Origin: an uncultured Thermoleophilaceae bacterium
GTDB lineage: Bacteria; Actinomycetota; Thermoleophilia; Solirubrobacterales; Thermoleophilaceae
DNA: 39,200 nt
Reading direction: 5' to 3'
NCBI GenBank assembly: GCA_963757815.1
Contig: CAVWSN010000002.1
Span: forward strand, 1 to 39,200
Position 1 is the stretch's first letter; each line of letters opens with the position of its first letter. The translations under genes were made by a program, and so were the position numbers. Positions 2,471 through 39,200 of this stretch are shown here, in pieces. A model generated the notes under the pieces. The model made no database searches and was not told the DNA's origin. It saw only the letters and a program-made list of their open reading frames with translations.

Positions 2471-5456
2471 TCAGTCGCGAGCTAAGGGACCTGGTCTAGG
2501 ACTCGTTAACCCGTCAGCCAGCCCGAGGCGGTGCGCGACTGCCGCCGCCTCCGTGCGCGAGCGGACGTCGAGCTTGGCCAGGATTCGCGACACGTGGACA
2601 CTCGCGGTCTTCTCCGCCATGAAGAGCTCGCGGCCGATCTCGCGGTTGGTGGCCCCGCGTGCCACGAGCGCCAGGACCTGACGCTCGCGCGCCGTCAGGC
2701 CGAAGGGGTCGTCCGGTTCCGCGGCCCGGGTGTGCGGCTCGGCGGGGACGTCCAGCCCCAAGCGGGCGCGACTCGCCAGGCCCTCGACCTCGTGGGTCAG
2801 CCATCCGGCGCCCAGCCGGCGCGCCGCCTCGAGCGCCGCGCGGGCGGCCTCCGCCGCCGCGTCACGATCGTCGCGAGCCAGGTGCGCCTCGGCCTCCCGC
2901 CAACGGGCCAGTGCCGCCGGGTAAGGCCGCTCGAGCGCTTCCCATGCCGCCGTCGCGGCCGCCCAAAGCGCGGGATCGTTTGCACCGGATGCGCGGGCCG
3001 CATCGGCCTCGGCTGTGGCGAGGTGCGCGCGCTGGATCGGCCCGCCGTTCTCGGCGGCTGCCCGAAGCTGCTCCAGGAACACGCGGAGCCGCTCGAGCGC
3101 CCGGGCAGCCTCCGGATCGTCGCCGACATCCCGCGCCCGCTGCGCGGCGTCGGCCTCCACCGCCACGCCGGCAGTGGCCAGGTTGCTGCCGAAACGGGCG
3201 AGGTCGTCGGTGCCGTGCTCGAGCCGGGCGAGCAGCCGTCTCGACGGTCTCGCGGGCATCGTCGAGATCGCCCTTACGGCGCAGCAGCTCGGCCTGTAGC
3301 CCGCCGATCGGTGCCAGGAACTGCGGCTCGGTCGAGTCCTCGAGCGTAGGGCGCATGCGCTCCAGCCACTCGGCGGCCTCGGCGTGTTCGCCTCTGCCGA
3401 TCGCCAGCTGGAGGCGGCCCAGCTCGATGACCAGCATCGTGCGGTCGTCGAAGCGGCGGCCCGGCTCCGGCAGCGCTCGGGCCGCCTCCTCCCAGTCGCC
3501 GAGGTCGAATGCGATTTCGCCCATCATGAAGTTGAGCCACTGGTGGGTATTCGGGCTGGTCGCGAGCTCTTCGGCACCCCAGCGCGCCGCCTCGATCGCG
3601 TCGCGGCTCCGGCCTGCGGCGTGCAGCGCATCGGCCAGGTTGACCGCCGCCGCGTCGATCTCCAGCGGGTCGCCGCGCTCGACAGCGATCTCGCCCGCCC
3701 GCCTGAGTGCGGCCGTCCCCTCTTCGATCTCGCCCAGCGGAATCAGCGCCGTCCCGAGCACGTTGAGCGCAACGCCGAGCGAGGCGGCGTCGCCGCATGC
3801 CTCCGCCACGCCCTGTGCCTCGCGCGCCTGCTCGACGGCCTCGCGCAGGCGCCCCTGGAACATCTGGCCTCGCGCCCACATGCCCAGGAGAGCGGCGCGC
3901 TCGGGCGAGTCCTCACCGGGAGGCAGCAGCCGGAGGCCGGCGCGCAGGGTGTCGAGCGCCTCGTCGGCGCGGTTGAGGTGCCACTGGAAGCGAGCCAGGC
4001 GCGCCATCATCCTCGCCGCCTTTCGCGGCTCGGCCGTCTCGTCGACGTCCTCGAGCGCGGCGCGCAGGAGCGCCTCCGCCCGGCTGCGCCGGCCCCCGAG
4101 GTTGTGGACCTCGGCCGCACGCCACATCAGGTCGCCGCGCTCGAGCCCGGCCACGGCCTCGGCGTTCGGAACCTGGTCCCACAGCTCGAGGGCCCGCTCG
4201 AGCAGCGCAGCCGCCTCGCTCGGGGCGCGTACCGCCTCTGCCGCGTCCGCCGCATGCATGCTCGCCGCGAGCGCAGCGGTGTGGTCGCCGGCCGCGAGGC
4301 GGTGGGAGGCGATCGCGGTGCTGATCGCGACGCTCGTGTCGCCGGCCGCCGACCGCCGCTCGAGGGCCTCGGCCAGCGCGCGGTGGAGCTCGATCCTCTC
4401 GCCCGGCAGCAGGTCGTCCTGCACCACTTCCCGCAGGAGCGCGTGACGGAACGCCAGCCTGCCGTCGGCGTCCACGACCGCGAGATGATTGGCGACCGCA
4501 GTGCGCAGGCACTCCTGGAGCTCGCGCGCGTCCAGCCCCGCGACCTCGGCCAGCAGGTCGTGGTCGAGCCGGCCACCGACCGCGAGCACGCGCAGGAGCC
4601 CCTGCGCGCGGTCAGGAAGCCGCTCGATCCGGAGCATCAGCGCGTCGCGCAGCGTCCGGGGGAGGGCGCCGCGGCCGTCGAGGCCCGCAGCCAAGAGCTC
4701 CTCCATGAACAGCGGGTTGCCCTCCGAGCGCGCGTAGAGGCGTTCCACCAGCTCGGCTGCCGGCGGGGCGCCGAGAATGTCGCCCAGCGCGCCGGCCAGC
4801 TCGTCACGCGTCAGCGGCGCGAGCTCGACGCGGCGCACGCGCGTATCGCGCTCAAGCTCGGCAAGCAGGGGGCGGAGCGGATGGCGGCGGTGCAACTCGT
4901 CGAGCCGGTACGAGGCCACGACCAGCACGCGTTCGTCGAAGAGGCTCCGCGCCAGGTAGGCGAGGAACGCCCGGGTCGAGCTGTCGGCCCAGTGGATGTC
5001 CTCCAGCACGAGCAGGACGGGGGCGCGCTCGCCCAGGTCGTGCAGCAGCGCGAGGACGGCCTCGAACAGTCGACCCTGGGCGCCTGTGTCGCGGCTGGGG
5101 GCGGGCCCCTCGCCCAACGCCGGCATGAGGGGAGTGAGCTCGGCGCGCGTGGCGGTGGGGAGGGCCTCGAGCGCTGCGTCACCGTCCCGCGCCAGCGGCC
5201 GAAGCGCCGTCAGGAGCGGAGCGTAGGGAAGCTCGCCGTCGCCGAGGTCGACGCACTCGCCGGAGAGCGTGTGGCCACCGCTTTCAGCGGCGCGCGCGAC
5301 AAGCTCGGCCACCAGCCGGGTCTTGCCCACCCCGGAGTCGCCTGCCACGAGCGCGAGGGAGGGGGCGCCCGATTCGGCGTCCGCGAACGCCGCCTCGAGC
5401 TCGGCCAACTCTGCCTCGCGACCGACCAAGCGGGAACTCGTGACCCGAGTGGCCAT
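2471..5456 (-). CDS. Large ATP-binding LuxR-family (LAL/MalT-like STAND) transcriptional regulator; one frame disruption near 3235
   Basis: N-terminal Walker A (AGDSGVGKT), DIHWAD Walker B-like motif, long TPR-like helical middle, C-terminal GerE/LuxR HTH ([43 protein letters not shown]). The 864-aa and 262-aa ORFs join across a 1-nt shift: ...ARETVETAA|RLLARLEHG... Confidence 0.75.
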
Positions 5457-5512
5457 GCCCCGCAGTATGGCGGCGGGCTACTTCCCAAAGAGCTCGCGGC
5501 CAGGGGGGACGC

Positions 5513-8500
5513 TCACGGCCCGGCCTCGACAAGGCTCGTCGGCACCTCCAGCACGCGGTCGATGGTCGCGCCCTGGTAGTCGGCCGGCAGGCGCTCATCC
5601 CGTCGCGCTCCGGCCCGTCACGCGGAGCACGGTGAGCTTGGCGGGCGTGATGTCCCCGTTGCCGTCGAAGCGGAAGGTGCCCAGGATGCCGTCTTTCACC
5701 GCGACTCGCCCGCAGCTCCCGGAGCACCGCGGCCCGCGTCCCGTCGGAGCGGGCGATCGCCGTCAGGACCACCTCCGCGGCCTGCGCGGCATGGAGCACA
5801 TAACGCTCATCGGCAGCCGATCCGAGGTCGGCCGCGATGCGCCTGGCGGCAGGTGTGAGCCCGGGCCCGCCGGCCAGCAGATCCGGCGTCATCGCGTACA
5901 GGCCGCGGGCGGCGCGGCCGGCTCTCTCGAGCACGTCGGGGATCGGGGAGAGCCCGCTGGTCGCCATGATCGGCACGCGCGGGCCGAGGCGGGCGCGCAG
6001 GGCCTTCAGCACGCGGTCGCCGCCGCCGTCGTCCACGAAGGCGCCGAGCATGACGCCCTGCGCGTCCGACCGCGCGACCTCGTTCGCGAGCGCCTCGAAG
6101 CTCTTCGCCCCCGGGTCGAAAGCCTTCGCGCCGGCGATCGTCAGGCCGACCCGTTCGGCCGTCCGGGGGACGGAGTCGGTCAACAGCGTATCCCACAAGA
6201 CCCCGTCGTGGATCAGATAGACGCTCTTGAGGCCGAGCTGCGTTGCGAGCATGGCCAGCGCCGCACCCTCGAGGTCGTCGGTGGGTGACAGCCTGGCGTA
6301 GTTGCGCTCGCCGGTCGGGTAGAAGATCTCCGGCGCGTCCGGCGCGAAGCCTTGCTTCGTCAGATGGGGATGCGAGTTCGAGGGACTGACCATCGCCAAT
6401 GGGCCACCCGGCGCCCGGTTGAGAGTCGGGATCTCGACCTCCGCGCAACCCGAGCTGTACGGGCCGATCACCGCCACGAGCTTCTCCGCGCGCGCGTAGG
6501 CGTTCGCGTTGGCGGCGCACCTGCGGAGCTCGAAGCTGCCGCTCTGTGACGTGGAGTCGTCACACGACGCGTAGCCGACCGAGTGTTTGCCTGCCCTGAA
6601 GCCGTGCCGCTCGATCACCGACCGGATCGCGTCGGCCATCGCGCGCGGCCGCCGTACTGTCGGGGCCCTGGAGCGGGAGGTCGGAGGCCACCAGCAGGTC
6701 CGGGCTGCCGCCGCCCGCGAGCGACCTCGCCGCAGGCGAAGGCGGGAAGGGCGCCCGCCTCCGCCGCCCCCGCGACGCTCACCCACGCGGATCCCTCGCC
6801 TGCCGCGAGCGCCCTGGGAGTTCCGACCGCCATCCTCGCCGTGACAGCGTTCGTGCGCGGATCGATCCGCGAGACCGTGCCGTCGATGTAGTTGGCAGCC
6901 CAGACCGCCCCTTCTCCGAACGCGATGTAGCCAACGCCCACCCCGACCTCGATCGGCTTGGGTATGGGTCGCGGCCCCGGCTCGATCCGCCAAACGAGGC
7001 CCTCGTCCTCCGCCGTTGCCCAGACGGAACCGGCGCCGACCGCGATCGCGGGCAGTGCGTTGGCGCCGATCGGGATCGTCTGGGCGACGCGGTTCGTGCG
7101 CGGGTCGATGCGCTTGATCGCAGGCCGCTCCCAGGGTACGAACCACACGCCCTCCTCGCCCGCGGCCACGGTGGCGGCGGAGACGTCGATAGTCGCGACG
7201 AGCTCGCCCGGTCTCGGGATCGATGCGGGAGATGCTGGCGTCCGGGTTGCGCGCCCAGACGGCGCCGGCTCCGACGGCGATCTGCGGGTACCCCGTGTTC
7301 GGAGCGCCGGTGATGCCGCCGCCGCTCGTGTCGGGCAGCTTCAGGGTTCGCGTCACTTTCTCAGTACCCGGGTCGACCCGGGAGATGCTGACCGTGGTGG
7401 TGAAGTAGCGGCCGCCGCCGTTCCCGACCCAGAGCGCTCCCGCACCGACGGCCAGCTGGCTGGGCGTCCCGGGCGTCTTGACGCTTCCGGTGATCTCCTT
7501 CGTCTGCGGGTCGATGCGCGAGATCGCGTCCTCCCCGTCCTGCAGGGCCCAGACGGCGCCCTCCCCCGCGGCCACGTTCCCCGGCAGCGCCTCGGACTCT
7601 GTGAGCGACGCGACCTTGCCCGTCGCGGGATCGATCGCGGCGACCCCCGTCCCGAGCGGCTCAGTCCGAGCATCCTCAGCAGTCGTGAGCGCCACGATGG
7701 CCGCGGCGATCGCCGCCCCGAGCATCAGCAGGCCGGCTGCGAGGACGGCGCGGCCACGCCGGCGAAGCCCGCGGCGGCCCGAGCTGCCGGCGCGGCGGCC
7801 CGGGGAGGCGCGAGTCCAAGCGCCTCGGCCGCCGCGTCGATGAGCTCGCCGCAGCTTCGTAGCGGTCCTCGCGGTCTTTGGCGAGCGCCTTGCGCAGCAC
7901 CGGATCGAGCCGCGGGTAGCCCGCGCAGCGGGGCCGGCTGCTCCTGCATGTGCGCCCACAGTGATCTCGGCCTCGGTCGTGCGCCGGAACGGCGGCGCGC
8001 CGGCCAGGCACTCGTAGAGCACGCAGCCCAGCGCGTAGACGTCGGTGCGGCCGTCGACCGGGTCGCCGCGGATCTGCTCGGGCGCCAGGTAGTCGAGCGT
8101 GCCGACGACCCGGCCGGTGTCGGTCGAGTCGCCGCCGACCTGCTTGGTGATGCCGAAGTCCGTCAGGTAGGCGTGGCCGTCCTCGTCGAGCAGCACGTTG
8201 GCGGGCTTCACGTCGCGATGCACGAGCGCGCGCCGGTGCGCGGCGTCGAGCGCGCCCGGCGACCTGGGCCAGCACCGCCAGCGTCCGCTGCGGCGCAGCT
8301 TCCCCTCGCGCTCGAGGATCGCTCTGCAGGTCGCTGCCCTCGACGAACCGCATCGCCAGGTAGAGCTGGCCGTCGTGCTCGCCCGCCTCGTAGATCGGGA
8401 TCACGTTCGGGTGGTCAAGCGACGCCGCCAGGCGCGGCTCGCGCAGGAAGCGGGCCCGGAAGCGCTCGTCCTCGGCCAGCTCCGGCGCGACCAGCTTCAG

Positions 8501-8612
8501 CGCCACCGGCCGCTCCAGCGACAGGTCCGTCGCGCGGTAGACGACACCCATCCCGCCGCGGCCGACCAGCGACTCCACCCGATAGCCGGCAAAGATCGTG
8601 CCCGGTCTTCAT
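5513..8612 (-). pseudogene. Receptor Ser/Thr protein kinase copy A (STPK, TM helix, beta-propeller repeats, LivK-type PBP1 domain); at least 6 frame disruptions
   Basis: Kinase motifs [37 protein letters not shown] helix [21 protein letters not shown]. Repeated G.GAVWV.N...SRIDP.T blades. Leu/Ile/Val-binding-protein-like domain ([17 protein letters not shown]...IMATSGL). Pieces lie in at least 5 different ORF frames. ATG at 8612 overlaps the stop of copy B (TGACCATG). Confidence 0.7.
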
Positions 8613-8614
8613 GG

Positions 8615-11600
8615 TCAGCCCGACAGGCTCTTCGGCACGGTCATGACGCGGTCGACGACGGATCCGCGGAACCACTCGAACACACGAGCATCGGGCGGCG
8701 CGTGGCCACTCACGCGGAAGATCGCGATCTGGGCGGGAGTGATGTCCCCGTGGCGGTCGAGCCGGAAGTCGCCCAGGACGCCGTCCTCCACCTCGACGGT
8801 GCGAAGCTCCTGGAGCACCGATGCTCGCGTCCCGTCGGAGCGTGCGATCGCGTCCAGCACGACCTCGGTCGCCTGCGCCGCCGTCAGAACACCCTGGACC
8901 GGGTCGTCAAACGTCCCGAAGTCGCGCGCAAAGCTCCGCCCCGCGGGGCTCCCCTCGCGGGCGCTGGGTGGGACGTCCAGGGAGCTCATGTAGAGACCGT
9001 GCGCGGCCGGCCCGGCCAGCGTCGAGCAGGTCGGGCACGTCGCCGAGCGGCTCGGTGGCCATGATCACCGCACTCTGGCCCAGGCGGGCGCGCAGCGCCT
9101 TCACCAGCCGAGCCGCCACCTCCGCGCCGGCAAAGCCACCCATGAAGACGCCCTGCGCGCCGGAGCGAGCGACCCTCTGCGCGAGCGCGTCGTAGCTCTT
9201 CGCCTCGGGATCGAAGGCCTCGGAGCCGGCGACTCCGACACCCAGGCGACCGGCGGCCCTGCTGAACGGGTCCGTGTAAGTGATCCTCGGGCTCCCTCCG
9301 ATCCCATCCTGCTCGTGGAGCAGGAAGACGCGCCTCAGCCCGAGCTCCTTGGCGAGCATGGCCTGCGCCACGCCCTGGAGGTCCTCGCGAGGGACGACCC
9401 GGGCGAAGTTGCGCACGCCCGTCGGGTAGTAGATGCCTGGCTCTCTTATGCCGGGGCCCCCGACCTCGTCGAGCCGGCCGCCGCGGGTGAGCCCCGAGTG
9501 GGTCGCGATCGGGCTGACGATCGCCAGTGGGCCGCCAGGGGCCCGGTTCAGAATCGGGATCTGAACCGAGCCGCAGTACGAGGAATAGGGCCCGATCACG
9601 GCCACGAGCTGCTCCGCGCGGGCGAAGGCGGACGCGTTTGCCGCGCACTTGCGAAACTCGAAGCCGCCGGTCTGCGGGGTGGAGGGGTCGCAGGACTGGT
9701 AGCCGACCGTGTAGTCGCCGGCCCTGAATCCGCGCCGCTCGAGGGCGAAGCGGATCGCGCCCTCGATCGCTCGTGCGTCGCCGCTGACGGGACCCTGCAG
9801 CGGGAAGTCCGAGGCGATCAGGACGTCCGGGGTCCCACCGCCCGGAGGCGACCTCGCCGCAGCCCGCTGCGGTCAGGGCTCCCTCGGTCGTCCCGCCCGC
9901 CACGCTTACCCAGGCCGCGCCGGCGCCGGCGGCCAGAGCCTGTGGGGTTCCGATCGACGTCCTCGAGCTCACGTTGTTCGTGCGCGGATCGATCCGGGAG
10001 ACCGCGCCGTCGACGTAGTTGCCCGTCCAGGCCGCCCCCTCGCCGAAGGCGACGAGGCTCACGCCCTTCCCGACGTCGATCGACCTCGTGATCGGCCGCG
10101 GCCCGGGCTCGATCCGCCAGACGAGGCCCTCGCCCTCCGCGGCCGCCCACACCGAGCCGGCCCCGACTGCCACCCCCAGCAGGCCGGTCGCGGCGATCGG
10201 AATCGTCTCCGCCACACGATTCGTGCGCGGGTCGATCCGTCGGACCGCCGGCGGATCTCGTCAAGCGCGAGGAACCAGACTCCCTCCTCGGCCGGCGGCG
10301 ATCGTCCACGCGCCGAACTGGGATCTCGATCGTCGCGACGAGCCGTCCGCTCTCGGGATCGATGCGCGACACGCTCCCGTCGGGGTTGGCCGCCCAGACC
10401 GCACCGGCGCCCACGGCGATCCGGGGCGCGCCCGCCACCGGGTACACGCCCTCGTCGCCTCGGAGCCGCACGGTTCGCGTGACCCGGCCCGAGTCGGGAT
10501 CGAGCCGGGAGACGCTGACCGTGGCGTTGCTGAAATCTCCGCCGCCCGCGTTCCCGATCCATAGCGCACCCTCGCCGGCCGCGAGCTCACTCGGCACGCC
10601 GGGGGTGTCGAACGTCTCCGTGACCTCCTTCGTCTCCGGGTCGATGCGAGAGACGGTCCGCTCCTCGTTGTTCAGCGCCCAGACCGCGCCCTCGCCCACC
10701 GCGACGTTGCCCGGCGGCGTTCGCGACTCGGTGAAGGACGTAACGTCACCGTCCGCGGGGTCGATCGCGGCAACTCCGTTACCGATCGGCTCGGTTGGGC
10801 TGTCGTCACCGCCGGTGAGGGCGACGACCGCCAGCCGCGATGACTGCGGCCAGCAGGAACAGGCCGGCGGCCAGCAGGCGCGCGGCCTCGGCGCCGTAGT
10901 CTGGCTGGTGCGAGCGGGCGCCGGGGTGCCTGTAGTCCGAGCGCCGGCGCGGCGGCGTCGATCAGCTCGGCGCAGGTCTTGAAGCGGTCTTCGCGGTCTT
11001 TGGCGAGCGCCTTGCGGAGCACCGGGTCGAGCCGCGGGTAGCCGCGCAGCGGGGCCGGTTGCTCCTGCATGTGCGCCCACAGGATCTCGGCCTCGGTCGT
11101 GCGCCGGAACGGCGGCGCGCCGGCCAGGCACTCGTAGAGAACGCAGCCCAGCGCGTAGACGTCGGTGCGGCCGTCGACGGGGTCGCCGCGGATCTGCTCG
11201 GGCGCCAGGTAGTCGAGCGTGCCGACGACACGGCCGGTGTCGGTCGAGTCGCCACCGACCTGCTTGGTGATGCCGAAGTCGGTCAGGTAGGCGTGGCCGT
11301 CCTCGTCGAGCAGCACGTTGGCGGGCTTCACGTCGCGATGCACGAGCGCGCGCCGGTGCGCGGCGTCGAGCGCCCCGGCGACCTGGGCCAGCACCGCCAG
11401 CGCCCGCTGCGGCGGCAGCTTCCCCTCGCGCTCCAGGATCGTTCGCAGGTCGCTGCCCTCGACGAACCGCATCGCCAGGTAGAGCTGGCCGTCGTGCTCG
11501 CCCGCCTCGTAGATCGGGATCACGTTGCGGGTGGTCGAGCGACGCCGCCAGCCGCGGCTCGCGCAGGAAGCGGTCCCGGAAGCGCTCGTCCTCGGCCAGC

Positions 11601-11743
11601 TCCGGGGCGACCAGCTTGAGCGCCACCGGCCGCTCCAGCGACAGGTCCGTCGCGCGGTAGACGACACCCATCCCGCCGCGCCCGACCAGCTCCTCGACGC
11701 GATAGCCGGCAAAGATCATGCCGCGGCTCAAAGCTGCCTTCAT
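8615..11743 (-). pseudogene. Receptor Ser/Thr protein kinase copy B (same architecture as copy A); about 7 frame disruptions
   Basis: N-terminal [29 protein letters not shown]. Full kinase domain in the 346-aa [20 protein letters not shown]. Propeller blades in the 641- and 409-aa ORFs. PBP1 domain in the 232- and 124-aa ORFs, ending ...VMTVPKSLSG*. Example indel: ccgcaacgtg here versus ccgaacgtg in copy A. Confidence 0.7.
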
Positions 11744-11846
11744 GCTGCGCTCCCCAAGGGGGCCGAGTCCATGACCGACCGTACCACGGGAGGGGCGGCG
11801 CCACCGGGCGCCGCCCCTCGTGGGCAGACGGGGTCGCGTGGGTGGC

Positions 11847-23727: not shown

Positions 23728-24703
23728 GGTCCGGCTCTCCAGTCCCGGCAAGGTGCTCTTCGCCGAGCGCGGCGAGACCAAGCGCGACCTCGTCGACTAC
23801 TACCTGCGCGTCGGCGAGCCGCTGCTGCGGACGATGGGCGGTCGCCCGGTGCTCATGCAGCGCTTTCCCAGGGGCGCGGGAGGACCGTCCTTCTTTCAGA
23901 AGCGCGTCCCGGAGAACGCGCCCGAGTGGCTGGAGACGACCACGGTGACGACGGTCAACGGCACGCAGTCGCGCGCGCTCGTGATCGCCGACCTCGCGCA
24001 CGTGGTCTGGGCGGTCAACCTCGGTTGCCTGGGCTTTCACGTCTGGCCGTACCGCGCCGCGGACCCCGAGCATTGCGACGAGCTGCGCCTCGATCTCGAC
24101 CCGCAGCCGGGCACGGACTTCACGGATGTCCGCCGAGCCGCCGCGGAGCTCAAGGCGCTGCTGGACGAGCTCGACCTCGTCGGCTATCCGAAGACCACCG
24201 GCAACCGAGGGCTGCACGTCTACGTCCGCCTCCTGCCGCGCTGGGACTCCTACGCGGTGCGCGCCGCCGCGGTGGCGGTCGCCCGGGAGCTCGAGCGCCG
24301 GCGCCCCGACGTCATCACCGCGGCCTGGTGGAAGGAGGAGCGCGGCGAGCGGATCTTCGTGGACTACAACCAGAACGCGCCGCACAAGACCGTCTTCGGC
24401 GCATGGGCGGTGCGTGCCCGTGAGGGCGGTCAGGTCTCCACCCCGCTGCGCTGGGAGGAGGTGGCCGAGCTGCACCCGGACGAGCTGACGCTGGCCACGG
24501 TCCCCGACCGCCTCGACCGGCTCGGCGACCCGTGGGAGGAAATCGACGAGGCCCCGCAGTCACTCGAACCGCTGCTCGCGATGCACGAGCGCGACCGCGC
24601 CAACGGTCTGCTCGACGCCCCGTGGCCCCCGGTCTACCCCAAGATGCCCGACGAACCTCCGCGCGTCGCGCCAAGCCGCGCGAGGAAAGGCCCTCCGGCC
24701 TAG
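23684..24703 (+). CDS. Stand-alone LigD-type NHEJ polymerase/primase domain protein (PolDom, AEP superfamily)
   Basis: Motifs RLSSPGKVLF, GYPKTTGNRGLHVYVRL, RGERIFVDYNQNAPHKTVFGAWAVR. GTG start inferred. Confidence 0.8.
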   Translation: MARDDAEVLELAGREVRLSSPGKVLFAERGETKRDLVDYYLRVGEPLLRTMGGRPVLMQRFPRGAGGPSFFQKRVPENAPEWLETTTVTTVNGTQSRALVIADLAHVVWAVNLGCLGFHVWPYRAADPEHCDELRLDLDPQPGTDFTDVRRAAAELKALLDELDLVGYPKTTGNRGLHVYVRLLPRWDSYAVRAAAVAVARELERRRPDVITAAWWKEERGERIFVDYNQNAPHKTVFGAWAVRAREGGQVSTPLRWEEVAELHPDELTLATVPDRLDRLGDPWEEIDEAPQSLEPLLAMHERDRANGLLDAPWPPVYPKMPDEPPRVAPSRARKGPPA

Positions 24704-24729
24704 CGCGCTGCCGGCGCTACCTTGAGACT

Positions 24730-24957
24730 GTGGCTGCTCGGGCGCGGATCCTGGCGTTCGGCGCGGCGGGCCTGGTCGTGATCGCCGGCGTGCTGTGCGC
24801 GGGCCTGGTGGGCGGATTGACCGGTCAGGTGCTCGCGATTGTGCTGATCTCGGCCGGGCTCGGCGGCGCTCTGCTGCTCATGTTCCTCGACGTGGGCCTG
24901 TCCGAAGACCGGGAGCGGGCTCGGGATGAAGAGCGACGGCGCCGGCGCCGCTCGTGA
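24730..24957 (+). CDS. Small 2-TM membrane protein with Arg/Glu-rich tail (hypothetical)
   Basis: ILAFGAAGLVVIAGVLCAGLVGG..VLAIVLISAGLGGALLLMFL followed by EDRERARDEERRRRRRS. Confidence 0.25.
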   Translation: MAARARILAFGAAGLVVIAGVLCAGLVGGLTGQVLAIVLISAGLGGALLLMFLDVGLSEDRERARDEERRRRRRS

Positions 24958-25047
24958 CGAACTCGGTGACCCGTCGCCAAGCCCAATGGCCCTCTCAGGC
25001 CTGCCTGGTCAACTAGAGGGGCGGGATGACCTCGGAGCGGAGACACG

Positions 25048-26545
25048 TCAGTCAAGCGGCGGCGGCCGCATGGGATGCGGCGTGCTGTAAGGCCGCGTTC
25101 GGGGTGGGGCTGCGTCGTTCAGCTTGGCGTCGGTCTCGTTCAACCTGGGGTCAGCCCATACGAGCCCGTCGACCGCGAGTGCGAGGTCAAGGCGGCTGCC
25201 GTCCCAGTGGCGGCTTGTCGTATCGGACGTGAGGTCCAACCGGTGCCGGCGGTTGTCGGCGTATAGCCGCGCTGGGCTGCTCGCGGTGGTGGTCGGAGCT
25301 GCGGGTAGCGGGCGGCCGTCGGGATGCCTGAAGATCAGCGCTTGGTCGCGGTCTCGGGTGAGGCCGTAGCCCCCTTCGTGGATCAGCCGGTGGTGATAGG
25401 CGCAGAGCTGCACGAGGTTGGCGAGCGCGGTTTGTCCACCGCGGGCCCAGTGCTCGATGAGGTGGGCGTGGAGGAAGCGGGTCTGCCCGCAACCGGGGAA
25501 GCGGCAGCCGTGGTCGCGGTTTGACAGCGCGCGCCTGAGTGCGGGCGGCACGCGGCGCGTCTTTCGCCCCGCCGACAGTGGGCGTCCGCCACGCTCGAGG
25601 ATCGAGACGACACCCGCGTCGCAGGCCAGCCTGCGGGCGGTCTCAGGGTCGAGCGGCGCACCGTGCTCGAGCCCGCAGGCCTGGCTCGCGCTCGGCGTCG
25701 TCGGCGCCGGACAGCGCCCCTATGTCGACGTGCACGACGACCTGGTAGCGCTCGCCTCCGGTCCGTTCTGCGGCACCGGACGCGATCAGGGTGTCGGCCA
25801 TCAAGAGCAGCGCGTCGGGGTTGGACGGCGCGGGCGACCTCGCGGGTTCGGCCTCCGTGGGCATCTCCCCTGACGGGCTCGCTCCCGAGATCGAGCCATC
25901 AGAGTCGGGTCGCGCCGCCGAGCCGAGCGACGCCTCGGCGCGCTTGCCATCAGAGGCCTCGCTGCGCAGCTGGTCGCGCCCCGCTTGGAGCGCGGCTATC
26001 AGCAGCGCGCCTTCGTCCGCCGGCAGCCGGCCGCGGATCACCAGCGCCCCGTCGTCGTCGTGTTGGCAGGTCAGGTAGCGCTCACCGTGCGCGCTCTCTT
26101 CGGCGGAGAGCTCGCGGGCCAGCACTCCCCGATAGGCGCGCAGCACGCGCTCGAGCTGTGCGGCGGTGGAGTGCCGCGCGAGCTCAAGCAGCCGGCCCTC
26201 GAGCTCGGGTGTTGCAATACGCGACAGCGCCCTGACCTGCGAATAGCTCAGCTCACCCCGCTCGAAGACCGCCCCGATCTTGGGCAGCTCCTCAAGCCGC
26301 CTCGCCACGCGCACGTGCTCGCGCGCCGCGCCCGAGCCCAGCGCGCACGTGTACGCGAGCCAATGCGCACACGACTTGCAGCCCCAGCTCGCCCAGCCCT
26401 CACGACGATCGAACTCGGCCACCAGCGCGAGCCAGCGACAGGTCGCCGCGTGAATGTGCGCCGCCAACTCGGTGATCTCGCGCTCGAGCAGCTCAAGCGG
26501 TCGTTCCCGCGAGTCCAACCGCTCGCCATAAGCCGTTGCTTCCAT
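25048..26545 (-). CDS. DUF222 + HNH endonuclease (REP13E12-like); one frame disruption near 25670
   Basis: DUF222 region (…ELAAHIHAATCRWLALVAEFDRREGWASWGCKSCAHWL…). After a 1-nt shift the HNH region follows (LDPETARRLACDAGV…RDHGCRFPGCGQTRFLHAHLIEHWARGGQTALANLVQLCAYHHRLIHEGG). Confidence 0.7.
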
Positions 26546-26853
26546 CCCGTCTCCCGATCCAATGTACGAACACATGTTCCCATAGCGCTCGGACGGAACG
26601 GTGCCGGCTGGATCGGGACGCCGACGCTTCCGCGGAAACACCTCGAGCACAGCTCGAGGGTTCCGCCGTCCGCTTCGTGCCCTCCCGGCGGCCGGCGCTC
26701 AGGGCGTGTTCGGCTGCCGAGCGAAATCGTCGGCGTTGATCAGGTTGAGCTCGAGCGCCGGCGCGAAGGTCTGCACGTCGCTCTCGGCGCCGTCAATGAC
26801 ACGCTGTGTGTGGAGGGGCGTAGCATGGACGCGAGGCGAGGGAAGGAGCGCAC

Positions 26854-27333
26854 GTGGGCGTTCAGACGGGATTCCAGGCGGTGACGGGGTACCTCGAGCG
26901 GGAGGGCGTGACCTTCGAGGTTGTCGAGCATGCGCGCACCGAGAGCGCGACGGCCGAAGCCCGGGCAGTGGGTCTGCCGCCCACAGATGTGGCGAAGACC
27001 GTGGTGCTGCGGGACGGTGTCGGCCTGCGGCTGGCGGTGATCCCCGCATCCCACCGGCTCGACCTCCACAAAGTGCGCGACTTGCTTGGCGCCTCACTCC
27101 GCCTTCGTCTGGTCAGCGAGACGGAGATGGCCGCCGAGTTCGACCAGTTCGAGGTGGGGGCGCTCCCGCCACTCGCGCCACTCCTGGACGCGGTCGAATT
27201 GATTGATGAGCGGCTGCTCGATCACGATCGCATCCTCTTCGCGGGCGGCGACCACGAGCATGGGGTGCTTGTGGACCCGCGCGACCTGGTCCAGGCCGCG
27301 CGGGCCCGTGTCGCGGACCTCTGCGAGGACTGA
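26854..27333 (+). CDS. YbaK/ProX-like aminoacyl-tRNA deacylase domain protein
   Basis: 159 aa. YbaK-like pattern (…VEHARTESATAEARAVGLPPTDVAKTVVL…FAGGDHEHGVLVDP). Confidence 0.65.
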   Translation: MGVQTGFQAVTGYLEREGVTFEVVEHARTESATAEARAVGLPPTDVAKTVVLRDGVGLRLAVIPASHRLDLHKVRDLLGASLRLRLVSETEMAAEFDQFEVGALPPLAPLLDAVELIDERLLDHDRILFAGGDHEHGVLVDPRDLVQAARARVADLCED

Positions 27334-27395
27334 CTGCCCCCGCCGCGGGCGGGGAGAGGGGACCGTTGCGGCCCCCTTCGTCGTCTAGAACAGGC

Positions 27396-28196
27396 TTACG
27401 GCGTTAGCGCGACCGCCGCCTCCGGCGTGGCCACGTGGAAGCTGAAGCTCTCCTCGAGATAGAGCCGCACCGCTTCGCCGTCGTGTGACTCATACCCGAT
27501 CGACACGTCCTGGCCCGAGTCGAAGATGAAGTCGCCGCCTCGCTGGCTCAGCAAGAGGGCTCCGGTCACGCCCGGCGCCCATACGATCGGCCCTTCGACG
27601 ATCCTGCGCAGGTGCTCCAGCAGCGGGTAGCCACCGTGTTCGGCCGTTTCGATCACCAGGCGATATTGCTCGCTCCCGAGCGCCAGCCCGTATGGCCCGG
27701 CGATACCGCTCTGCAGCAGGCGCTCGACCGCGCCCGCCACTGCCCGCGGATAGCCGTCGGCGGCCTTCCCGAGCGGCATCGGTTCATGGGGCGAGCTGTC
27801 GCCGATGCCGCTCGTCGCGCCCTGCCAGCCGTGGAACACGGCGACGTTCTCGGCCGTCGCGATCTGATGCGCGGCCTTGTCGAGCGCCTCGAGGTCGGTG
27901 TCATCGGCGCCACGATCGGCGTCACGCAGCTCCGCCCTGGACAGCTCGAAGTCCGCGCGCAGCTCGACCAGCGGCAGTACGCGCCGCTGAAGTCCGGACA
28001 CCCCTTCGGCGGGGGCGGACGCGAGCGGATCCGTGCGCCCCAGATTGGTCGCCGAGTGCTCCCAGCCACGCGGGCCGGCGAAGTCGACCAGCTTGCGGGC
28101 GGCGAGCGCCGGCGCCAAGCGGTCGCGCGCCTCGCCGTCGAGCAGCTGCCAGCCCGACTCGGTGATGGGGGCGTGCTCGCGCAGCAGGTGGTTCAT
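27396..28196 (-). CDS. Family 1 encapsulin shell protein (linocin M18-like)
   Basis: 266 aa from MNHLLREHAPITESGWQLLD… to …SFSFHVATPEAAVALTP. Co-linear with mycobacterial/Brevibacterium encapsulin (…RRVLPLVELRADFELSRAEL…GPYGLALG…IGYESHDGEAVRLYLEESF). Confidence 0.85.
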   Translation of the reverse strand: MNHLLREHAPITESGWQLLDGEARDRLAPALAARKLVDFAGPRGWEHSATNLGRTDPLASAPAEGVSGLQRRVLPLVELRADFELSRAELRDADRGADDTDLEALDKAAHQIATAENVAVFHGWQGATSGIGDSSPHEPMPLGKAADGYPRAVAGAVERLLQSGIAGPYGLALGSEQYRLVIETAEHGGYPLLEHLRRIVEGPIVWAPGVTGALLLSQRGGDFIFDSGQDVSIGYESHDGEAVRLYLEESFSFHVATPEAAVALTP

Positions 28197-29207
28197 CGCG
28201 ATGCCCCCTTCAAGCTTCCGATCGCGAGCGAGCCGTCTCCCGGACGTAGCCTCGGCCGTGGACGATGGAGCGGGGCCTGGCGTCGGCGGGTCGTCGAGGA
28301 AGCCGACGGTGGGCACGAAGAACAGGTTGCCCGTGACCGCCGTGGAGAAATCGAGGATCCGGTCGTAGTTGCCCGGCGGCTTGCCGATGAACATGTTCGT
28401 GAGCATCTGCTCAATCACCTCTGGGTTGCGGGCGTAGCCGAGGAAGTAGGTGCCGAATTCTCCGGCCCCGACGCGGCCGAACGGCATGTTGAAGCGCGTG
28501 ATCTGGAGTTGGTCGCCGTTCTCGTCGACGATTGTGTTCAGCGCCACGTGCGAGTTGGCCGGTTTCACCTCGTCGGGGAGTTCGATGTCGTTGAGCTTGG
28601 TCCGGCCGATCGCGCGCTCCTGTTCCTCGACCGGCAGCGCATCCCAGGCCTCCAGGTCGTGGACGTACTTTTGAACGACGACGTAGCTCCCGCCCGCGAA
28701 CTCCGGGTCCTCGTCACCGATCAGGACTGCGGCAGGCGCCGCTGCTCCCTCTGGGTTCTCGGTGCCGTCGACGAAGCCGAGCAGGTCGCGTTCGTCGAAA
28801 GACCTGAATCCGTGGACCTCATCGACCACGCGCGCGTAAGCGGTGAGCCGCCCGGTCAGCCGTTGCGCGAGCTCGAAGCACAAGTCGAGCCGATGGGCCC
28901 GGATGTGGAACAACAGATCGCCGGGCGTCGTGGGCGCGCTGTGCCTCGGGCCGGCAAACTCGGGAAACGGATGCAGCCCATCAGGACGCGGTGCGCCGAA
29001 CAGCCGATCCCACACCCCAGCGCCGACACCGACGACGCAGGTCAGCTCTCCCTCGGGAATCCGGAAACCCACGGACCGCTTGAGTCCGCTGAGATCCGAT
29101 AGCACATCGCGGACCCCGTCCTCGGCCCCCGAATCCACGGACAGCGTCAGGAAGATCGCCGCCTCGGTGATCGGGGTCAGAATGGCTTGCGGCTCACTCG
29201 CCTGCAT
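28193..29207 (-). CDS. Dye-decolorizing (DyP-type) peroxidase cargo with C-terminal encapsulin-targeting peptide (1-nt frame disruption near 28255)
   Basis: DyP core (…AAIFLTLSV…GFVDGTENP…HVALN…FGTYFLGYA…GNLFFVP). The -1 frame carries the terminal …PGDGSLAIGSLKGASR*, a canonical SLxIGSLKG targeting peptide. Its TGA overlaps the encapsulin ATG (ATGA). SD GGAGG lies before the ATG at 29207. Confidence 0.8.
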
Positions 29208-29495
29208 CACGCCTCCATAGCTCGCGCGCTCGCCAGCCTACCCGGGTTCGCAGCCGGCGACCCGGGCCGACGGCGAGCGTGGCGGGTTCGGGCTGGAGCG
29301 GCGATCAGGCCGAGGCGCTGCCGACGAGAAGGAGGCGGGGGCTACGTGTGCGACGTACCGTGTTGGGCGAATTAGCGGTGGCCGCCACGCGGGCGACGCG
29401 CCAAGGTAGGGCTGGCCTGAATCGCGGTTTGGTGCTGGCCCCGAAGACAGCGTGAGTCGCAGGGGGGATCGTTCTGTGCATGACACGGACCCGCC

Positions 29496-30605
29496 GTGCA
29501 CGTTGGCCGCGCCTCCCGCGCTTTTCCCGCGTGCGCGACCACGACTGGTCCGCCACCCGAGCGCGCCGTCGTCATCGCCGCTCTTACGATCGCGGCGGGC
29601 TCGCTGTTCCTGACGACCTACACCCTGGCGCTCGGCGATCCCGTGCCGCACCGCATCGACGCGGCGCTCGTGGGTGACGGGACGCACCACGAGCGCACGC
29701 TCGAGGCGGTCGAGCAGGTCGCGGGGGGGAGCCTCACCTTCCGGCGGTACAGATCGGTGACGGCCGCGCGCCACGCCATCGATGTCCAGCGGGTCTACGC
29801 CGCGCTCGACCTGACGTCGGAGAGGCCGACGCTCTACGTCGCGAGCGCCGCAGGCGCGTCCGTGGCGCGTCTGCTCGAGCGCGTCCCCGCCAGCGCTCCG
29901 GGGGTGCGGGTCGTCGACACCCACCCGCTGTCCTCGAGCGACCGAACGGTCTCGACATCTTCTATCTCATGCTCGTCGCGACGATCATCGGCTTCCTCAC
30001 GGTGTTCCAGGTCCGCACGAACGCGGGCGGCCTCGGACTTAACCCGTGGACGACGTGGGTCGTGGGCTTCGCGCTCGCGGCGGCGCTCGCCCTCACGCTC
30101 GTGGTCGGACCGGTTCTGGACAGGTTCCACGTGCCGGTGGTGGAGACCTGGGGCATCCTCGCGCTCCACATCTTGGCCGTCGCATCGTTCGCGTCGGTCA
30201 TGACGGTGCTGGTGGGCCGGTGGGCGATCCTCCCGGTCTGGCTCTTCTTCGTCGTGCTGGGCAACAGCGCTTGCGGCGGGGCCGTCTCGCCGCCCCTGCT
30301 GCCCGGGCCCGTTCGCGTTCATCTCGCAGTGGCTGCCATCAGGCGCGACGGTCACCTCGCTTCGCGACGCGATCTATTTCCCCGGCTTCCAGCACGCACG
30401 CCCGATCCTGGTCCTCGCGGCGTGGGCGGCGACGCTCTTCGCCGCGATGCAGCTCGCGTCGCAGCGCCGCCGGACGAGCCCGGGCGGTGTGATCGAGCCG
30501 AACGGGCTCGCTGGGGGTTATCCGGAACCGCAAACGGCGGCTGGCCGCGATGACCACGAGGTGCTCGGGCGGCTCGCAGAGCGAGCAAACGCCGAGACCG
30601 TCTAA
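29496..30605 (+). CDS. DUF3533 / YhgE-Pip-like integral membrane protein (two apparent frameshifts near 29945 and 30310)
   Basis: N-terminal TM (VVIAALTIAAGSLFLTTYTL), extracytoplasmic segment, then 5 TMs (…IFYLMLVATIIGFLTVFQV… / …FAFISQWLPSGATVTSLRDAIYFPGF…). Reconstructed from 3 ORF frames. Confidence 0.45.
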
Positions 30606-30787
30606 CAAACCCATCGTGGGCCTGCGCGCCGATTGCGTGAGGGCCCGCGATCGAGGACGATAGGTAGGTGACCGCAATCAACCGGGAGCAGCGGAGGCTC
30701 GGCGCGATACCGGGCGAGCCGGCGCTGGGCCGCGGTCGGTCCCGCGAGCGTCGTAGTCGAGGTGACGCCGTCGCGAATGGGGGAGAC

Positions 30788-31807: not shown

Positions 31808-31856
31808 GCCGCCCGAGACTACGGTCGAGCGAAGACGGCTTCATCTCGCTGCCCGG

Positions 31857-33506: not shown

Positions 33507-33647
33507 CGTCGAAGCATGACGGGCGCGAGAACGGCCGCCGTGGATGCGGCCGCTACCTCCCCCGTAGTAAGCGAAGGAGTCAACCCCGGGGCGACGACAA
33601 GGACGCGCGCGTGAGAAAGACTTGATCCCTCTGGGAGCTAGCCACGG

Positions 33648-33986
33648 GTGGAGACAATGGATGACCACAGCGAACAAACCCGCTACGTGCCACACCAGGA
33701 TCTGCACGTCTGCGTCGAGTGCTCGTCACGCCTGGTCTACCCGGTCCAGTGGGAGGAGTCGGGCCCGGAAGACTGGTACGTGCTGCTGCATTGCCCGAAC
33801 TGCGACGTCTACCGCCAGGGCATCCACAGCCAGCACACGGTCGATGCGTTCGAGGAGGAGCTCAGCCGCGGCGCCGGGGCCCTCGCCCGTGACTACGCGT
33901 GCGTGGTGCGCGCGAACATGGCCGGGGAGATCGAGCGGTTCGTGCGTGCGTTGAACGCAGACGTGATCCTCCCCGAAGACTTCTAA
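33648..33986 (+). CDS. Small zinc-ribbon (CxxC…CxxC) hypothetical protein
   Basis: 112 aa, ATG start. CVEC…CPNC. Confidence 0.5.
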   Translation: METMDDHSEQTRYVPHQDLHVCVECSSRLVYPVQWEESGPEDWYVLLHCPNCDVYRQGIHSQHTVDAFEEELSRGAGALARDYACVVRANMAGEIERFVRALNADVILPEDF

Positions 33987-34112
33987 ATCTGCGGCATCTC
34001 CGTGGAGAGCGGATGCCCCTACTTCCCGGGGTAGCCGACGTAGTTCGAGTGGACGCAGAACGTAGGCTCCCTGGACGATCGTTCTCGTAATCGCAACTCC
34101 GGCAAGTCGGGC

Positions 34113-36175
34113 ATGACGGGTCGCGGGTTCGCCTTGGCGCGCCACACTGCGCAAGCGGGCCTGATCACGGGTGCCGTTGCGATCGCGGTCGTAAGCGTCC
34201 TGATCGCCGCGCTCAAGCGGATTGCCGATCCGCTTGGTCTCACCGGCTTGTACCTCTTCGCGATCCTTCCGGTCGCGATCGGTTGGGGCTTTGTGGTCGC
34301 CGGGGTCGTCGCGATCGCATCTTTCCTGACGTTTGCGTTCTTCTTCACCCCTCCGTTGCACAGCTTCCACATCGCTGAGGCGGACACCGCGGCGGCCCTC
34401 GTGATCGCGCTTGTTACCGCGTACGTCGTCAGCGAGCTCGCGCGGCGAGCGAACGAGCGTGCCCGCGAGGCGCGGTTGCGCGCCCACGAGGCTGAGCAGG
34501 CACAGAAGGAGCTCGGCGGGCTCGCCGACGAGCAGGCGGCGCTGCGGCGCGTCGCGACGCTGGTGGCGCAGGCGGTGCCGACCACCGACGTGTTGGAGGC
34601 CGTCACCCGCGAGGTGGGGCTGCGATGCGGCGCCGACCTTGCTCGCATGGAGCGCTTCGAACCGGATCGCACGGTCACTGCGATCGCCGCGTGGAGCCGG
34701 AGTGGCGAGGCTGAACTGGCCGTCGGCACGCGGCTCGCTCTGGAGGGGGCGAGCATCGCCGCGCAGGTGCACGAGACCGGCCGGCCGACCCGCGTGGACA
34801 GCTTCGCGGGCGCGTCGGGGCCGATCGCACGTGAGGCTCAGGCGCTGGGCATCCGCTCATCGGTTGGCTGTCCGATCGTGGTCGGCGGGCGGACTTGGGG
34901 AGTGATCGCCGCGTCCACGATGCACGACGAGCCGTTTCCCCCGGACACGGAGTCGCGGATCGCGGAGTTCACCGAGCTCGCGGCCACCGCGATCGCGAAC
35001 GCGGAGGCGCGCGATGAGCTGCGCCGGGTGGCCGACGAGCAGGCCGCCCTGCGGCGCGTGGCGACGCTCGTCGCGCGCGCCGCGCCGCCGCCGGCGGTGT
35101 TCGCGGCGGTCGCCGAGGAGGTCGGCCGGCTGCTGTCCGCAGACATCGCCGCCTTAACTCGTTACGACGCGGAGGACACCGTTACGGTCGCCGCCGCGTG
35201 GAGCGCGACCGGCGATGCCGTGCCGGTCGGACTCCGGAGTCGCGTCGATGAAGGCCCCTCCGTCACCAAGCGCGTGCGCGAGACCGGCCGTGCGGCACGG
35301 ATAGACCAGTACACCGACGCCTCCGGCGACGTCCGCGCGACTACGACCATTTTCGGGATCCGCTCCACCGTTGGCGCGCCGATCACCGTCGAGGGACGGC
35401 CGTGGGGGGTGATCGTCGTCGCGTCGACCGGCGACGAGCCTCCGCCGCCGGGAACGGAGGCGCGCCTGGGCGGATTTGCGGAGCTCGTCGCCACCGCGAT
35501 CGCCAACGCCGAGAGCCAGGCCGAGTTGAGGGCGTCGCGAGCGCGCATCGTCGCCACCGCCGACGAGACGAGGCGCCGGATCGAGCGCGACCTGCACGAC
35601 GGAGCCCAGCAACGGCTCGTCGCGCTCGGGCTCCAGCTGCGGGGGGCTCAGGCGGATGTACCACCGGAGCTCGGCGAGCTCGGGACGGAGCTCGAGGACA
35701 TCGCCGCCGGGATCACGGACGTGCTTGACGAGGTGCGCGAGATGGCGCGCGGGATCCACCCGGCGATTCTGGCAAGGGGCGGGCTCGGTCCGGCGCTGAA
35801 GACGCTGGCACGCCGCTCCGCTGTCCCAGTCGCGTTGGACGTCCGTACGGAGAGGCGGCTGCCCGAGGAGATCGAGGTCGGCGCGTACTACGTCGTCTCG
35901 GAGGCGCTGACGAACGCGGCGAAGCATGCGCGCGCCTTGTCCGTCGCCGTCGAGGTCGAGGCCGTGAACGGCGTCCTTCGCGTCTCCGTCCAGGACGACG
36001 GCGTCGGCGGCGCCGACTTCGCGCGCGGGTCGGGCCTCGTCGGCCTCAAGGATCGCGTAGAGGCTCTCGGCGGCCGGATCGCCGTCGAGAGCGCGCCCGA
36101 CACTGGCACGGCGGTTCACGTCGAACTTCCGCTCTCCGGCGAGCCGGAGTCTCCAGCTGATCCGATCGGTCCGCT
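34113..36175 (+). CDS. Sensor histidine kinase: KdpD-like DUF4118 membrane domain, 2x GAF, HisKA_3, HATPase_c (orphan; 3' end uncertain)
   Basis: TM block (…LYLFAILPVAIGWGFVVAGVVAIASFLTFAFFFTPP). Two GAF-like repeats, each preceded by ADEQAALRRVATLVA. H-box ERDLHDGAQQRLVAL. N/G boxes (…VVSEALTNAAKHA…GLVGLKDRVEALGGR). The open frame runs to 36383 as an Arg-rich tail antisense to the convergent gene, so the true stop is probably near 36160-36180. Confidence 0.75.
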
Positions 36176-36180
36176 AGGAC

Positions 36181-37887: not shown

Positions 37888-38838
37888 GGGTTAGCAGACG
37901 CGGCCAGCGACCGGTACGCCGTATCGAGGACCGCCGCGGAGCGCTCGAGCAGCCGCTGCTCGTCCTCCGACAACGTCAACGGGAGCTGGCGCTCGACGCC
38001 CCCCCGTCCGATGACGCACGGCAGGCTGAGCACCACGTCCCCGATGCCGTACTCCTCCAGGGCCGGCACAGAGATCATGAATATCCGCTTCTCGTCTCGC
38101 ACAACGGCCCGCACGATGCGAGCGACGGCGGCCGCGACACCGTAGCTCGTGAACCCCTTTCGATCGTGGATGCCCAGCCCGCGCCGGCGGGTCGACGTGG
38201 TCAGGTCGTCCTCGAGCTGTGACAACGGGCTGCTCTCGGGCAGCGGGTAGTTCTCGAGTTTGATCGCACCCACCGTCGCGCTCGACCAGACCGGAAACGA
38301 GCTATCCCCGTGCTCGCCGACGACGTAGACGTGGACATCCTCCTTCTCGACCCCGAGCCGCTCGCCGAGCCGGTGGCGTAGACGCGCGCCGTCGAGAACA
38401 GTCCCGGAGCCCATGAGCAGGTGAGCCGGCCGGGCGGAGGTCTCGATCGCGATCCGGGTCAGCACGTCCACGGGGTTGCTCACGAAGATCACGACCGCGT
38501 CCGGACTGACCCGATCGAGCTCACGAACAACGCCGGCGACGACGCCGGCGTTGAGCGCCAAGATGTCGAGGCGGCTCTGACCGGGGCCCCTCGTCGCCCC
38601 CACGGTGACCACCACGGCATCCGAGCCGCCGAGATCGGCGTAGTCGGCCGAGGGCACGATCTCCATCTCGGCCGAGCAGCGGGATCGCGTCGGCGATGTC
38701 CCAGGCCTCCCCCTCCGCACGGGCCGAGTCGCGGTCGAACAGCACCACCCGGTCACACCCGCGAAGCAGCACGAGCGCGTTGGCCACCGCCGAGCCCACG
38801 TGGCCGGCCCCGACTACCGAGACCTGCGAACCCGCCAT
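37884..38838 (-). CDS. L-lactate/malate dehydrogenase-family 2-hydroxyacid dehydrogenase (1-nt frame disruption near 38680)
   Basis: N-terminal Rossmann VSVVGAGHVGSAVANAL…VLFDRDSARAEGEAWDI. Then in the other frame …DAVVVTVGATRGPGQSRLDILALNAGVV…VIFVSNPVDVLT… Its stop overlaps the start of the 36181-37887 gene (TTGA). Confidence 0.75.
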
Positions 38839-38868
38839 CGAGCCGGTGACGTTACCGCGCCCGTGGGC

Positions 38869-39200
38869 TCAGCGCGCCTCGGCGACCGCCGGCCGCAAGC
38901 CCCGGTTGGGCTTGGCGGGGAGCAGCTTGAACGCGGAGGCGACAATCCCGATCGCGACCGCGACCCCGAAACCGAGGAGCGTCACGCGTGGGCTGACGCC
39001 CGCGGCGAGCGCGACGCCGGCGCCGATGATCGGCAGCGATAGGCCGACGAAGGCCGCCAGGTAGGTTCCGGCGAGCGCTTCCTCGTCACGATTATCTGTG
39101 AATCGGGAGGGACCCGGGTCATTGCCTCCACGCGCGGGATGCTGCAAAGTGACGGGTACGCGCCAACGCGCGACACTGGTCCCCGCGTCGAGGAGGTCCT
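38869..39200 (-). CDS. Partial membrane protein (C-terminal end; gene continues beyond the window)
   Basis: Hydrophobic helices AGTYLAAFVGLSLPIIGAGVALAAG…LLGFGVAVAIGIVASAF. The open frame has no convincing start inside the window. Confidence 0.3.
   Translation of the reverse strand, partial: DLLDAGTSVARWRVPVTLQHPARGGNDPGPSRFTDNRDEEALAGTYLAAFVGLSLPIIGAGVALAAGVSPRVTLLGFGVAVAIGIVASAFKLLPAKPNRGLRPAVAEAR

Follow-up and report, generated by a model that had tools for sequence, protein, structure and literature searches.

A DyP-encapsulin fusion reading frame in an uncultured actinobacterium is very probably a known two-gene encapsulin operon joined by one extra base

The stretch of DNA analysed here (hereafter the window; 39,200 nucleotides (nt) of contig CAVWSN010000002.1, assembly GCA_963757815.1, from an uncultured Thermoleophilaceae bacterium) carries on its minus strand a locus for a DyP-type peroxidase (DyP) and an encapsulin shell protein, which as assembled share a single open reading frame (ORF) of 604 amino acids (aa). 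In Pfam, this ORF comprises Dyp_perox_N (residues 8-136), Dyp_perox_C (139-302), and a full-length Linocin_M18 domain (339-589), and in NCBIfam it matches Dyp_perox_fam and encap_f1 (the family-1 equivalog NF041155). It does therefore read as a DyP-encapsulin fusion, as an earlier note on this DNA, made from the sequence without database searches, had described it. The linker between the DyP and shell parts has the sequence ...SSTAEATSGRRLARDRKLEGGIAMNHLL.... In another frame of the same strand, the ORF 28193..28414 ends with ...RPGDGSLAIGSLKGASR and a stop codon, i.e., with the cargo-loading (targeting) peptide, and its TGA (28195-28193) overlaps the encapsulin ATG (28196-28194; minus strand cgATGAac). 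Peptide and overlap are read directly in the sequence, just as the earlier note had reported; the frame that it called -1 is, however, the +1 frame, reached by skipping one base.

The minus-strand DNA at the junction is ACG TCC GGG A GAC GGC TCG CTC GCG ATC GGA AGC TTG AAG GGG GCA TCG CGA TGA AC, with the single A at position 28238 (Table 1). This base moves the DyP domain into the frame of the encapsulin and bypasses the peptide and the stop, such that the 604-aa ORF results. The fusion frame, with the junction peptide ...ATSGRRLARDRKLEGGIAMNHLLR, opens with AGA, a codon which accounts for 6 of the 468 arginine codons in the confident genes of the window. The two forms of the junction, with and without the extra A, are TCCGGGAGACGG and TCCGGGGACGG (window 28225-28250). 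When base 28238 is deleted in silico, translation yields a DyP of 337 aa ending with ATSGDGSLAIGSLKGASR and a stop, as well as the unchanged encapsulin of 266 aa, and these are the gene lengths in the closest relatives. Re-translation after a one-base correction, proposed earlier as a check, thus gives two proteins of regular length; the frame joint named for it (...SSTAEATSG/DGSLAIG... in the linker) is exactly right, whereas the position assigned to the correction (near 28250-28260) is not. The DNA of the targeting peptide is intact (DGSLAIGSLKGASR plus stop), being out of frame as assembled and in frame both after removal of 28238 and in the contig L170 described below. Where the window has the Shine-Dalgarno-like AAGGGGG, the relatives have AGGGAGG.

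Table 1. Features of the DyP-encapsulin locus and of its neighbours on one side, in window positions.
Feature	Position	Strand	Evidence or remark
Fused ORF, 604 aa	27396..29210	-	ORF list; as assembled
DyP-type peroxidase, coding part before the frame break	28239..29207	-	ATG at 29207, catalytic domains, Pro/Ala/Ser-rich linker ending ...SSTAEATSG
Extra base, A within TCCGGG[A]GACGG	28238..28238	-	Absent from L081-L084, L086, and L170
Cargo-loading (targeting) peptide DGSLAIGSLKGASR and TGA stop	28193..28237	-	One base off the DyP frame as assembled
Putative Shine-Dalgarno-like site AAGGGGG	28204..28210	-	7 nt 5' of the encapsulin ATG, within the targeting-peptide codons
ATGA overlap of DyP stop and encapsulin start	28193..28196	-	Sequence; commonest arrangement in related loci
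Family-1 encapsulin shell protein, 266 aa	27396..28196	-	NF041155, Linocin_M18, solved shells
YbaK-like (tRNA_edit) gene, PF04073	26854..27333		Confirmed by Pfam
DUF222 (PF02720) and HNH gene, broken	25048..26650		Confirmed by Pfam

The closest database protein (P0001, 337 aa) is 94% identical to the DyP part and ends with ...EPASGDSSLAIGSLREASR. Seven JGI metagenome contigs code for it, and six of them (L081-L086, from six samples) were compared as DNA. On these contigs, DyP (337 aa) and encapsulin (266 aa) are called as separate genes with an overlap of 4 nt, in the order S15 peptidase - CorA - DyP - encapsulin - CHRD - tRNA_edit, and the identity to window positions 29253..27394 amounts to 93.4-94.2%. 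The alignment with the five full-length contigs (L081-L084 and L086) has 1860 columns and only one gap, which is situated at 28238 (window TCCGGG[A]GACGG vs. TCCGGG-GACAG).

Exactly the same 266-aa encapsulin is recorded once elsewhere, on a contig of 6088 nt from ENA (ERZ25039541, contig_113622; L170). This contig aligns to window positions 30743..24682, and its gene calls are a DyP of 262 aa, the encapsulin (266 aa, with a 4-nt overlap), tRNA_edit, and a DUF222 protein. Across 29207..27396, only four differences from the window are found, namely substitutions at 29203 and 28268 and an indel of one base at each of two further sites. At the first of these sites, 28238, L170 lacks the A of the window (TCCGGG-GACGGCTCG), and its peptide is in frame; at the second, window position 28954, L170 has a private extra G, which breaks its DyP and accounts for the short call of 262 aa. 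Since the indels are as many as the substitutions, and each of them is private and disrupts the frame, they point to technical error and not to divergence. An exact look-up of the fusion protein in its 604-aa and 603-aa forms gave no record. In the collection metagenome_contigs, an exact-pattern scan matched neither form of the junction, with the extra base or lacking it (0 hits), and a protein-guided scan detected no contig above 84% identity, so that this collection gave no evidence from the same population.

Concerning the shell protein, the match to NF041155 reaches 276-279 bits (cut-off 100) and covers model positions 1-261 of 261, such that the alignment to family-1 encapsulins, on which the earlier note had let its interpretation depend, extends over the whole model. 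The match to Linocin_M18 (PF04454) covers positions 1-252 of 253 (263 bits), and full-length alignments are obtained with the solved type-1 shells 9RY4 (E = 3.5e-72), 7BOJ of Mycobacterium smegmatis (1.6e-59), and Cfp29 of M. tuberculosis (about 5e-57). The shell possesses its own start (ATG 28196) and, with 266 aa and no fused domain, the classical size of about 265 aa, and the DyP gene is located directly upstream on the same strand. The peroxidase belongs to the Pfam families PF04261 and PF20628 and matches TIGR01413 with 285 bits. After repair, its residues 1-335 align with the M. smegmatis DyP (7BOK, E = 3e-138), and the alignment with the M. tuberculosis DyP (9BKX) runs to the last residue of the latter, including GSLSIGSLKGSPR; the comparison with the M. 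tuberculosis pair, likewise suggested beforehand, is thereby positive for both proteins. The targeting peptide of the window aligns with the C-terminal peptides DGSLGIGSLKG (M. smegmatis) and GSLSIGSLKGSPR (M. tuberculosis). The GFVDGTENP motif, the SHV histidine, and the R-x-NMPFG arginine are kept in the alignment to 7BOK; from what is known of DypB, we take them to be catalytic residues. Judged by its sequence, the locus belongs to an already known kind of system, a standard family-1 encapsulin operon of two genes (DyP cargo, then shell), and this type of cargo-shell pair was rightly called well established in the earlier note.

The 604-aa fusion ORF is thus very probably an artefact of one extra A in such an operon. 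The first gene would encode a DyP-type haem peroxidase of 337 aa, the flexible linker of which ends in the targeting peptide GDGSLAIGSLKGASR, and by comparison with homologues its translation would be coupled to that of the encapsulin by means of the ATGA overlap. In analogy to the solved homologues, the 266-aa shell protein is expected to self-assemble into a T=1 60-mer of about 24 nm, and DyP oligomers would be enclosed as the shell assembles, by docking of the C-terminal peptide of DyP on its luminal face. Like its homologues, the system may have a role in peroxide or oxidative-stress chemistry.

The extra A itself is most likely a consensus error, arisen in sequencing or assembly, and one of many single-base indels in the window. 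As the comparison of the window outside DyP and encapsulin with the 80 loci of genome_contigs gave only scattered short matches and no usable synteny, indels were surveyed by Viterbi segmentation on codon usage together with Pfam coordinates; a GC3 frame plot by itself was too noisy for calling breaks. The segmentation indicates about 15 frame switches on the same strand in 39 kb, far from stop codons. Two Pkinase domains are split between frames, the first with profile positions 5-106 in ORF 7676..8578 and 120-204 in ORF 5284..8223, the second with positions 1-58 in ORF 9818..11743 and 55-212 in ORF 10672..11712. At both sites, the kinases of three unrelated loci (L031, L036, and L040) match the window as two adjacent segments in the frames -2 and -3. 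The kinase homologues place extra bases at 11527 (CACCCG[C]AACGTG), 8323 (CTGCAG[A]GCGATC), and 8254 (GCCGGG[C]GCGCTC), and one lost base near 8295. Similarly, the NAD-binding domain of a lactate/malate dehydrogenase (Ldh_1_N) is split near 38670 (profile positions 2-53 and 57-139), a LuxR-type regulator near 3236 has AAA_16 and TPR in one frame and GerE in another, and the frame of a membrane protein switches at about 29946 and 30306. In the gene with DUF222 and HNH domains, the window possesses an extra base at about 25688-25689 and L170 one at window position 25584; as these are different bases, each of the two sequences garbles a different part of the protein. Where breaks could be resolved to the base, nearly all are due to a single surplus base of the window, and long homopolymers are not involved in any of them; the insertion at 28238 is of the same kind. 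Given how many frames are broken across the window, and given that L170 has private indels of its own at other bases, a technical error is much likelier than a real insertion.

The breaks are found in the window regions 2471-12417, 25048-26650, 29496-30602, and 37884-39087. Within the first of these, 5284-12417 is made up of tandem paralogues (Ser/Thr kinase - DUF6923 repeats - Peripla_BP_6), both of which are heavily frame-broken. Two more single extra bases relative to L081-L084 are present at 31847 and 31864, at the very end of the S15 peptidase gene, where the first of them brings a TGA into frame about 14 codons sooner than in the relatives. Readings of this window at the level of genes should allow for an indel-rich assembly.

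Several points weigh against an artefact. The call is derived from assemblies and not from reads, such that a private insertion in the strain is possible. The insertion at 28238 lies outside a long homopolymer, which is the commonest context of long-read errors, and the same is true for the other resolved insertions of the window. L170 is in part a different genome, with only about 85% identity in the flank that carries the membrane gene; it therefore demonstrates that an unshifted allele exists, and not that the population of the window has it. Moreover, L081 and the window are syntenic over 5 kb, and no gene in this stretch other than DyP is broken within its body. The extra A might then be a real and recent mutation of the strain, whose cells would make a DyP-encapsulin fusion devoid of the targeting peptide and probably also free encapsulin from the internal Shine-Dalgarno-like site and ATG; either loading would then be defective, or mixed shells would contain DyP as a covalently tethered cargo. 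Such a fusion is encoded by the sequence as given, the internal AAGGGGG and ATG are intact, and other family-1 encapsulins tolerate N-terminal fusions of cargo (Flp and cytochrome; PMC8346489). However, the base is private to this assembly and missing in the otherwise nearly identical L170, neither the out-of-frame peptide nor the ATGA overlap exhibits any decay, and the many other breaks in conserved domains of the window jointly point to technical error. In addition, 60 fused DyP domains of 34 kDa would take up about 60% of the lumen of a T=1 shell by our estimate, and DyP works as an oligomer. A real mutation is accordingly considered unlikely.

The artefactual origin of the fusion is further supported by a census of 166 related loci, 80 of which possess DyP directly followed by encapsulin; loci from the scan of metagenome_contigs are included in these counts. 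None of the 80 adjacent loci has the two genes fused. The commonest junction is the ATGA overlap, and a peptide of the GSLxIGSLK type ends the DyP frame in 79 of the 80. With conservation to this extent, the DNA of the targeting peptide in the window is homologous and not a chance match. The lone exception is a metagenome-assembled genome (MAG; L001:10900-11012), in which the DyP frame ends with ...PPADGGRR and a stop, and the peptide DDGSLGIGSLKGGPR with its stop is found in another frame. This locus exhibits the same failure mode as the window. Taken together, the unshifted L170, the single gap in the five full-length relatives, and the lack of any fusion among the 80 loci bear out the earlier suggestion that the fusion arose from a one-base problem in the linker.

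Fused proteins do exist in databases, namely six of 539-638 aa in which DyP domains are combined with Linocin_M18 (P0002, P0003, P0004, P0008, P0011, and P0031), which might suggest an evolved and selected DyP-fusion encapsulin, i.e., a new class analogous to the Flp-fusion encapsulins. All six, however, are singletons from ENA assemblies, and frame-garbled stretches are visible in P0031 and P0003. Three (P0004, P0008, and P0011) could be traced to their DNA (L167-L169), in each case an ENA metagenome contig with a name of long-read style (contig_N, _np1212), and each of these contigs keeps an intact (E/K/T)GSL(G/R)IGSLKG... peptide with its stop in a different frame. For the pair L167/L168, we read synonymous changes in the frame of the peptide and none such in that of the fusion. 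In the window as well, the junction is not free of these elements, since peptide, TGA, Shine-Dalgarno-like site, and ATG are all present within 28193-28237, and an in-frame fusion is not conserved among the relatives, as the census shows. A large survey of encapsulins (PMC8346489) describes fusions in family 1 only for Flp (in Archaea) and for cytochrome (in anammox bacteria) and reports none with DyP, which it lists as the commonest family-1 cargo (1,505 systems, mostly in Actinobacteria), loaded by means of a C-terminal targeting peptide. An evolved DyP-fusion class is hence hardly credible. On the three traced contigs (L167:5099, L168:5090, L169:5039), the DyP stop (TAA) overlaps codons 2-3 of the encapsulin (ATGAATAA). 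L167 and L168, which are related to each other, shift within the same short stretch of the linker, which hints at a systematic error context.

Programmed +1 frameshifting at GGG-AGA-C has a negligible probability. In this reading, the tRNA-Gly in the P site would move from GGG to GGA as the rare AGA codon awaits its tRNA in the A site, and a single mRNA would give rise to two products, DyP carrying the targeting peptide (after the shift) and the DyP-encapsulin fusion (without it). The heptamer does resemble hungry-codon +1 sites, such as CUU-AGG-C of Ty1, and AGA is rare here (see above), but the motif occurs only in the window and results trivially from a random insertion of A. In the closest relatives and in L170, a single continuous frame runs through GGGGAC, conservation as expected of a programmed site is not found, with none of the 80 related loci needing a shift, and the other database fusions would require a shift of opposite sign. 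That the A is real and gives rise to something new (the fusion together with free encapsulin in mixed shells, a nascent DyP-fusion encapsulin, or a +1-slip variant giving both products) is regarded as very improbable.

Concerning the neighbourhood, the position between a DUF222-HNH element, a YbaK-like gene, and a DUF3533 membrane gene, as given in the earlier note, stands for the first two, the DUF222, HNH, and YbaK-like assignments being confirmed by Pfam. The third lacks such support: with its frames joined, the membrane gene matched no family in Pfam (E up to 10) or NCBIfam, the only hit being ABC2_membrane_3 at E = 3. Relative to L081-L086, this gene for a multi-pass membrane protein constitutes an insertion of 1.5 kb (29254-30787) between CorA and DyP, which are 48 nt apart in those contigs. 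The inserted stretch is related to a membrane-gene segment near DyP copies in the locus L022, where two such copies (6209-7135 and 10001-10924) are situated about 3.8 kb apart, each followed by a membrane-gene-like stretch and without adjacent encapsulin; the pair stems either from a tandem duplication or from an error of assembly. On the other side of the operon, the DUF222-HNH gene lies on an insertion of 1.9 kb (24951-26819) relative to L081 and L082, in which the positions equivalent to 24950 and 26820 are joined directly; L170 has this gene in the equivalent position (L170:4213-5607), which is consistent with a mobile element of the HNH/13E12 type. A segment with a GAF histidine kinase (33527-36179) is likewise an insertion relative to L081 and L082. 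The gene with a CHRD domain, which follows the encapsulin in the relatives, is missing from the window. The identity of L170 to the window forms a mosaic, with about 99.9% in DyP and encapsulin, about 98-99% in tRNA_edit, about 96-97% in DUF222-HNH, and about 85% in the membrane-gene segment, which suggests a recent exchange of the DyP-encapsulin segment or a hypervariable flank.

Between the convergent encapsulin and tRNA_edit genes, a gap of 62 nt (27334-27395) contains two GC-rich hairpins (-35.4 kcal/mol), which may form a bidirectional terminator; compared to shuffled sequences they are not clearly above chance (z = -1.8), and a T-tract is lacking. A scan for promoter and terminator consensus sequences around the operon yielded nothing above chance, and none of the accessory genes described in PMC8346489 (DUF1345, cupins, and short-chain oxidoreductases) was seen beside it.

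Biologically, the locus carries little weight, as DyP-loaded family-1 encapsulins are the commonest and best-characterised type of encapsulin. Its main value is that of a warning that long-read indels produce false DyP-encapsulin fusions. With the ATGA overlap as the usual arrangement, and with off-frame stops being scarce in high-GC DNA, one indel in the linker is enough to fuse the two ORFs. False fusions of this kind are already contained in public protein catalogues, and mining studies could take them for a new class of fusion encapsulins.

The nearest known counterparts are mycobacterial, namely Rv0799c (DyP) and Rv0798c (Cfp29) of M. tuberculosis and the DyP-loaded encapsulin of M. smegmatis (7BOJ/7BOK, 9BKX), with which the locus shares the order of cargo and then shell. 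The shell is a full-length match to Cfp29, and the DyP match reaches the C-terminus including GSLxIGSLKG. Despite this similarity, there are some differences: the window comes from an uncultured actinobacterium (nearest MAGs labelled Solirubrobacterales or Thermoleophilia), the sequence of the linker differs, and in the assembly the peptide lies one base off the DyP frame. DypB of Rhodococcus jostii RHA1 (PDB 3QNR and others), which residues 5-336 of the window DyP match with E of about 1e-120, and the shell of the Brevibacterium linens type (Linocin-M18 entries, E of about 1e-54 to 1e-57) are less similar in sequence than the mycobacterial pair. From the classical family-1 DyP systems (PMC8346489), the window differs in nothing of substance. 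To the Flp-fusion encapsulins (Pyrococcus furiosus, Saccharolobus) and the cytochrome-fusion encapsulins of anammox bacteria, the 604-aa ORF bears a superficial likeness, with cargo at the N-terminus of the shell; those fusions, however, are conserved within their lineages and possess no separate targeting peptide, whereas the fusion in the window is private and has a peptide, a stop, and a start at its junction.

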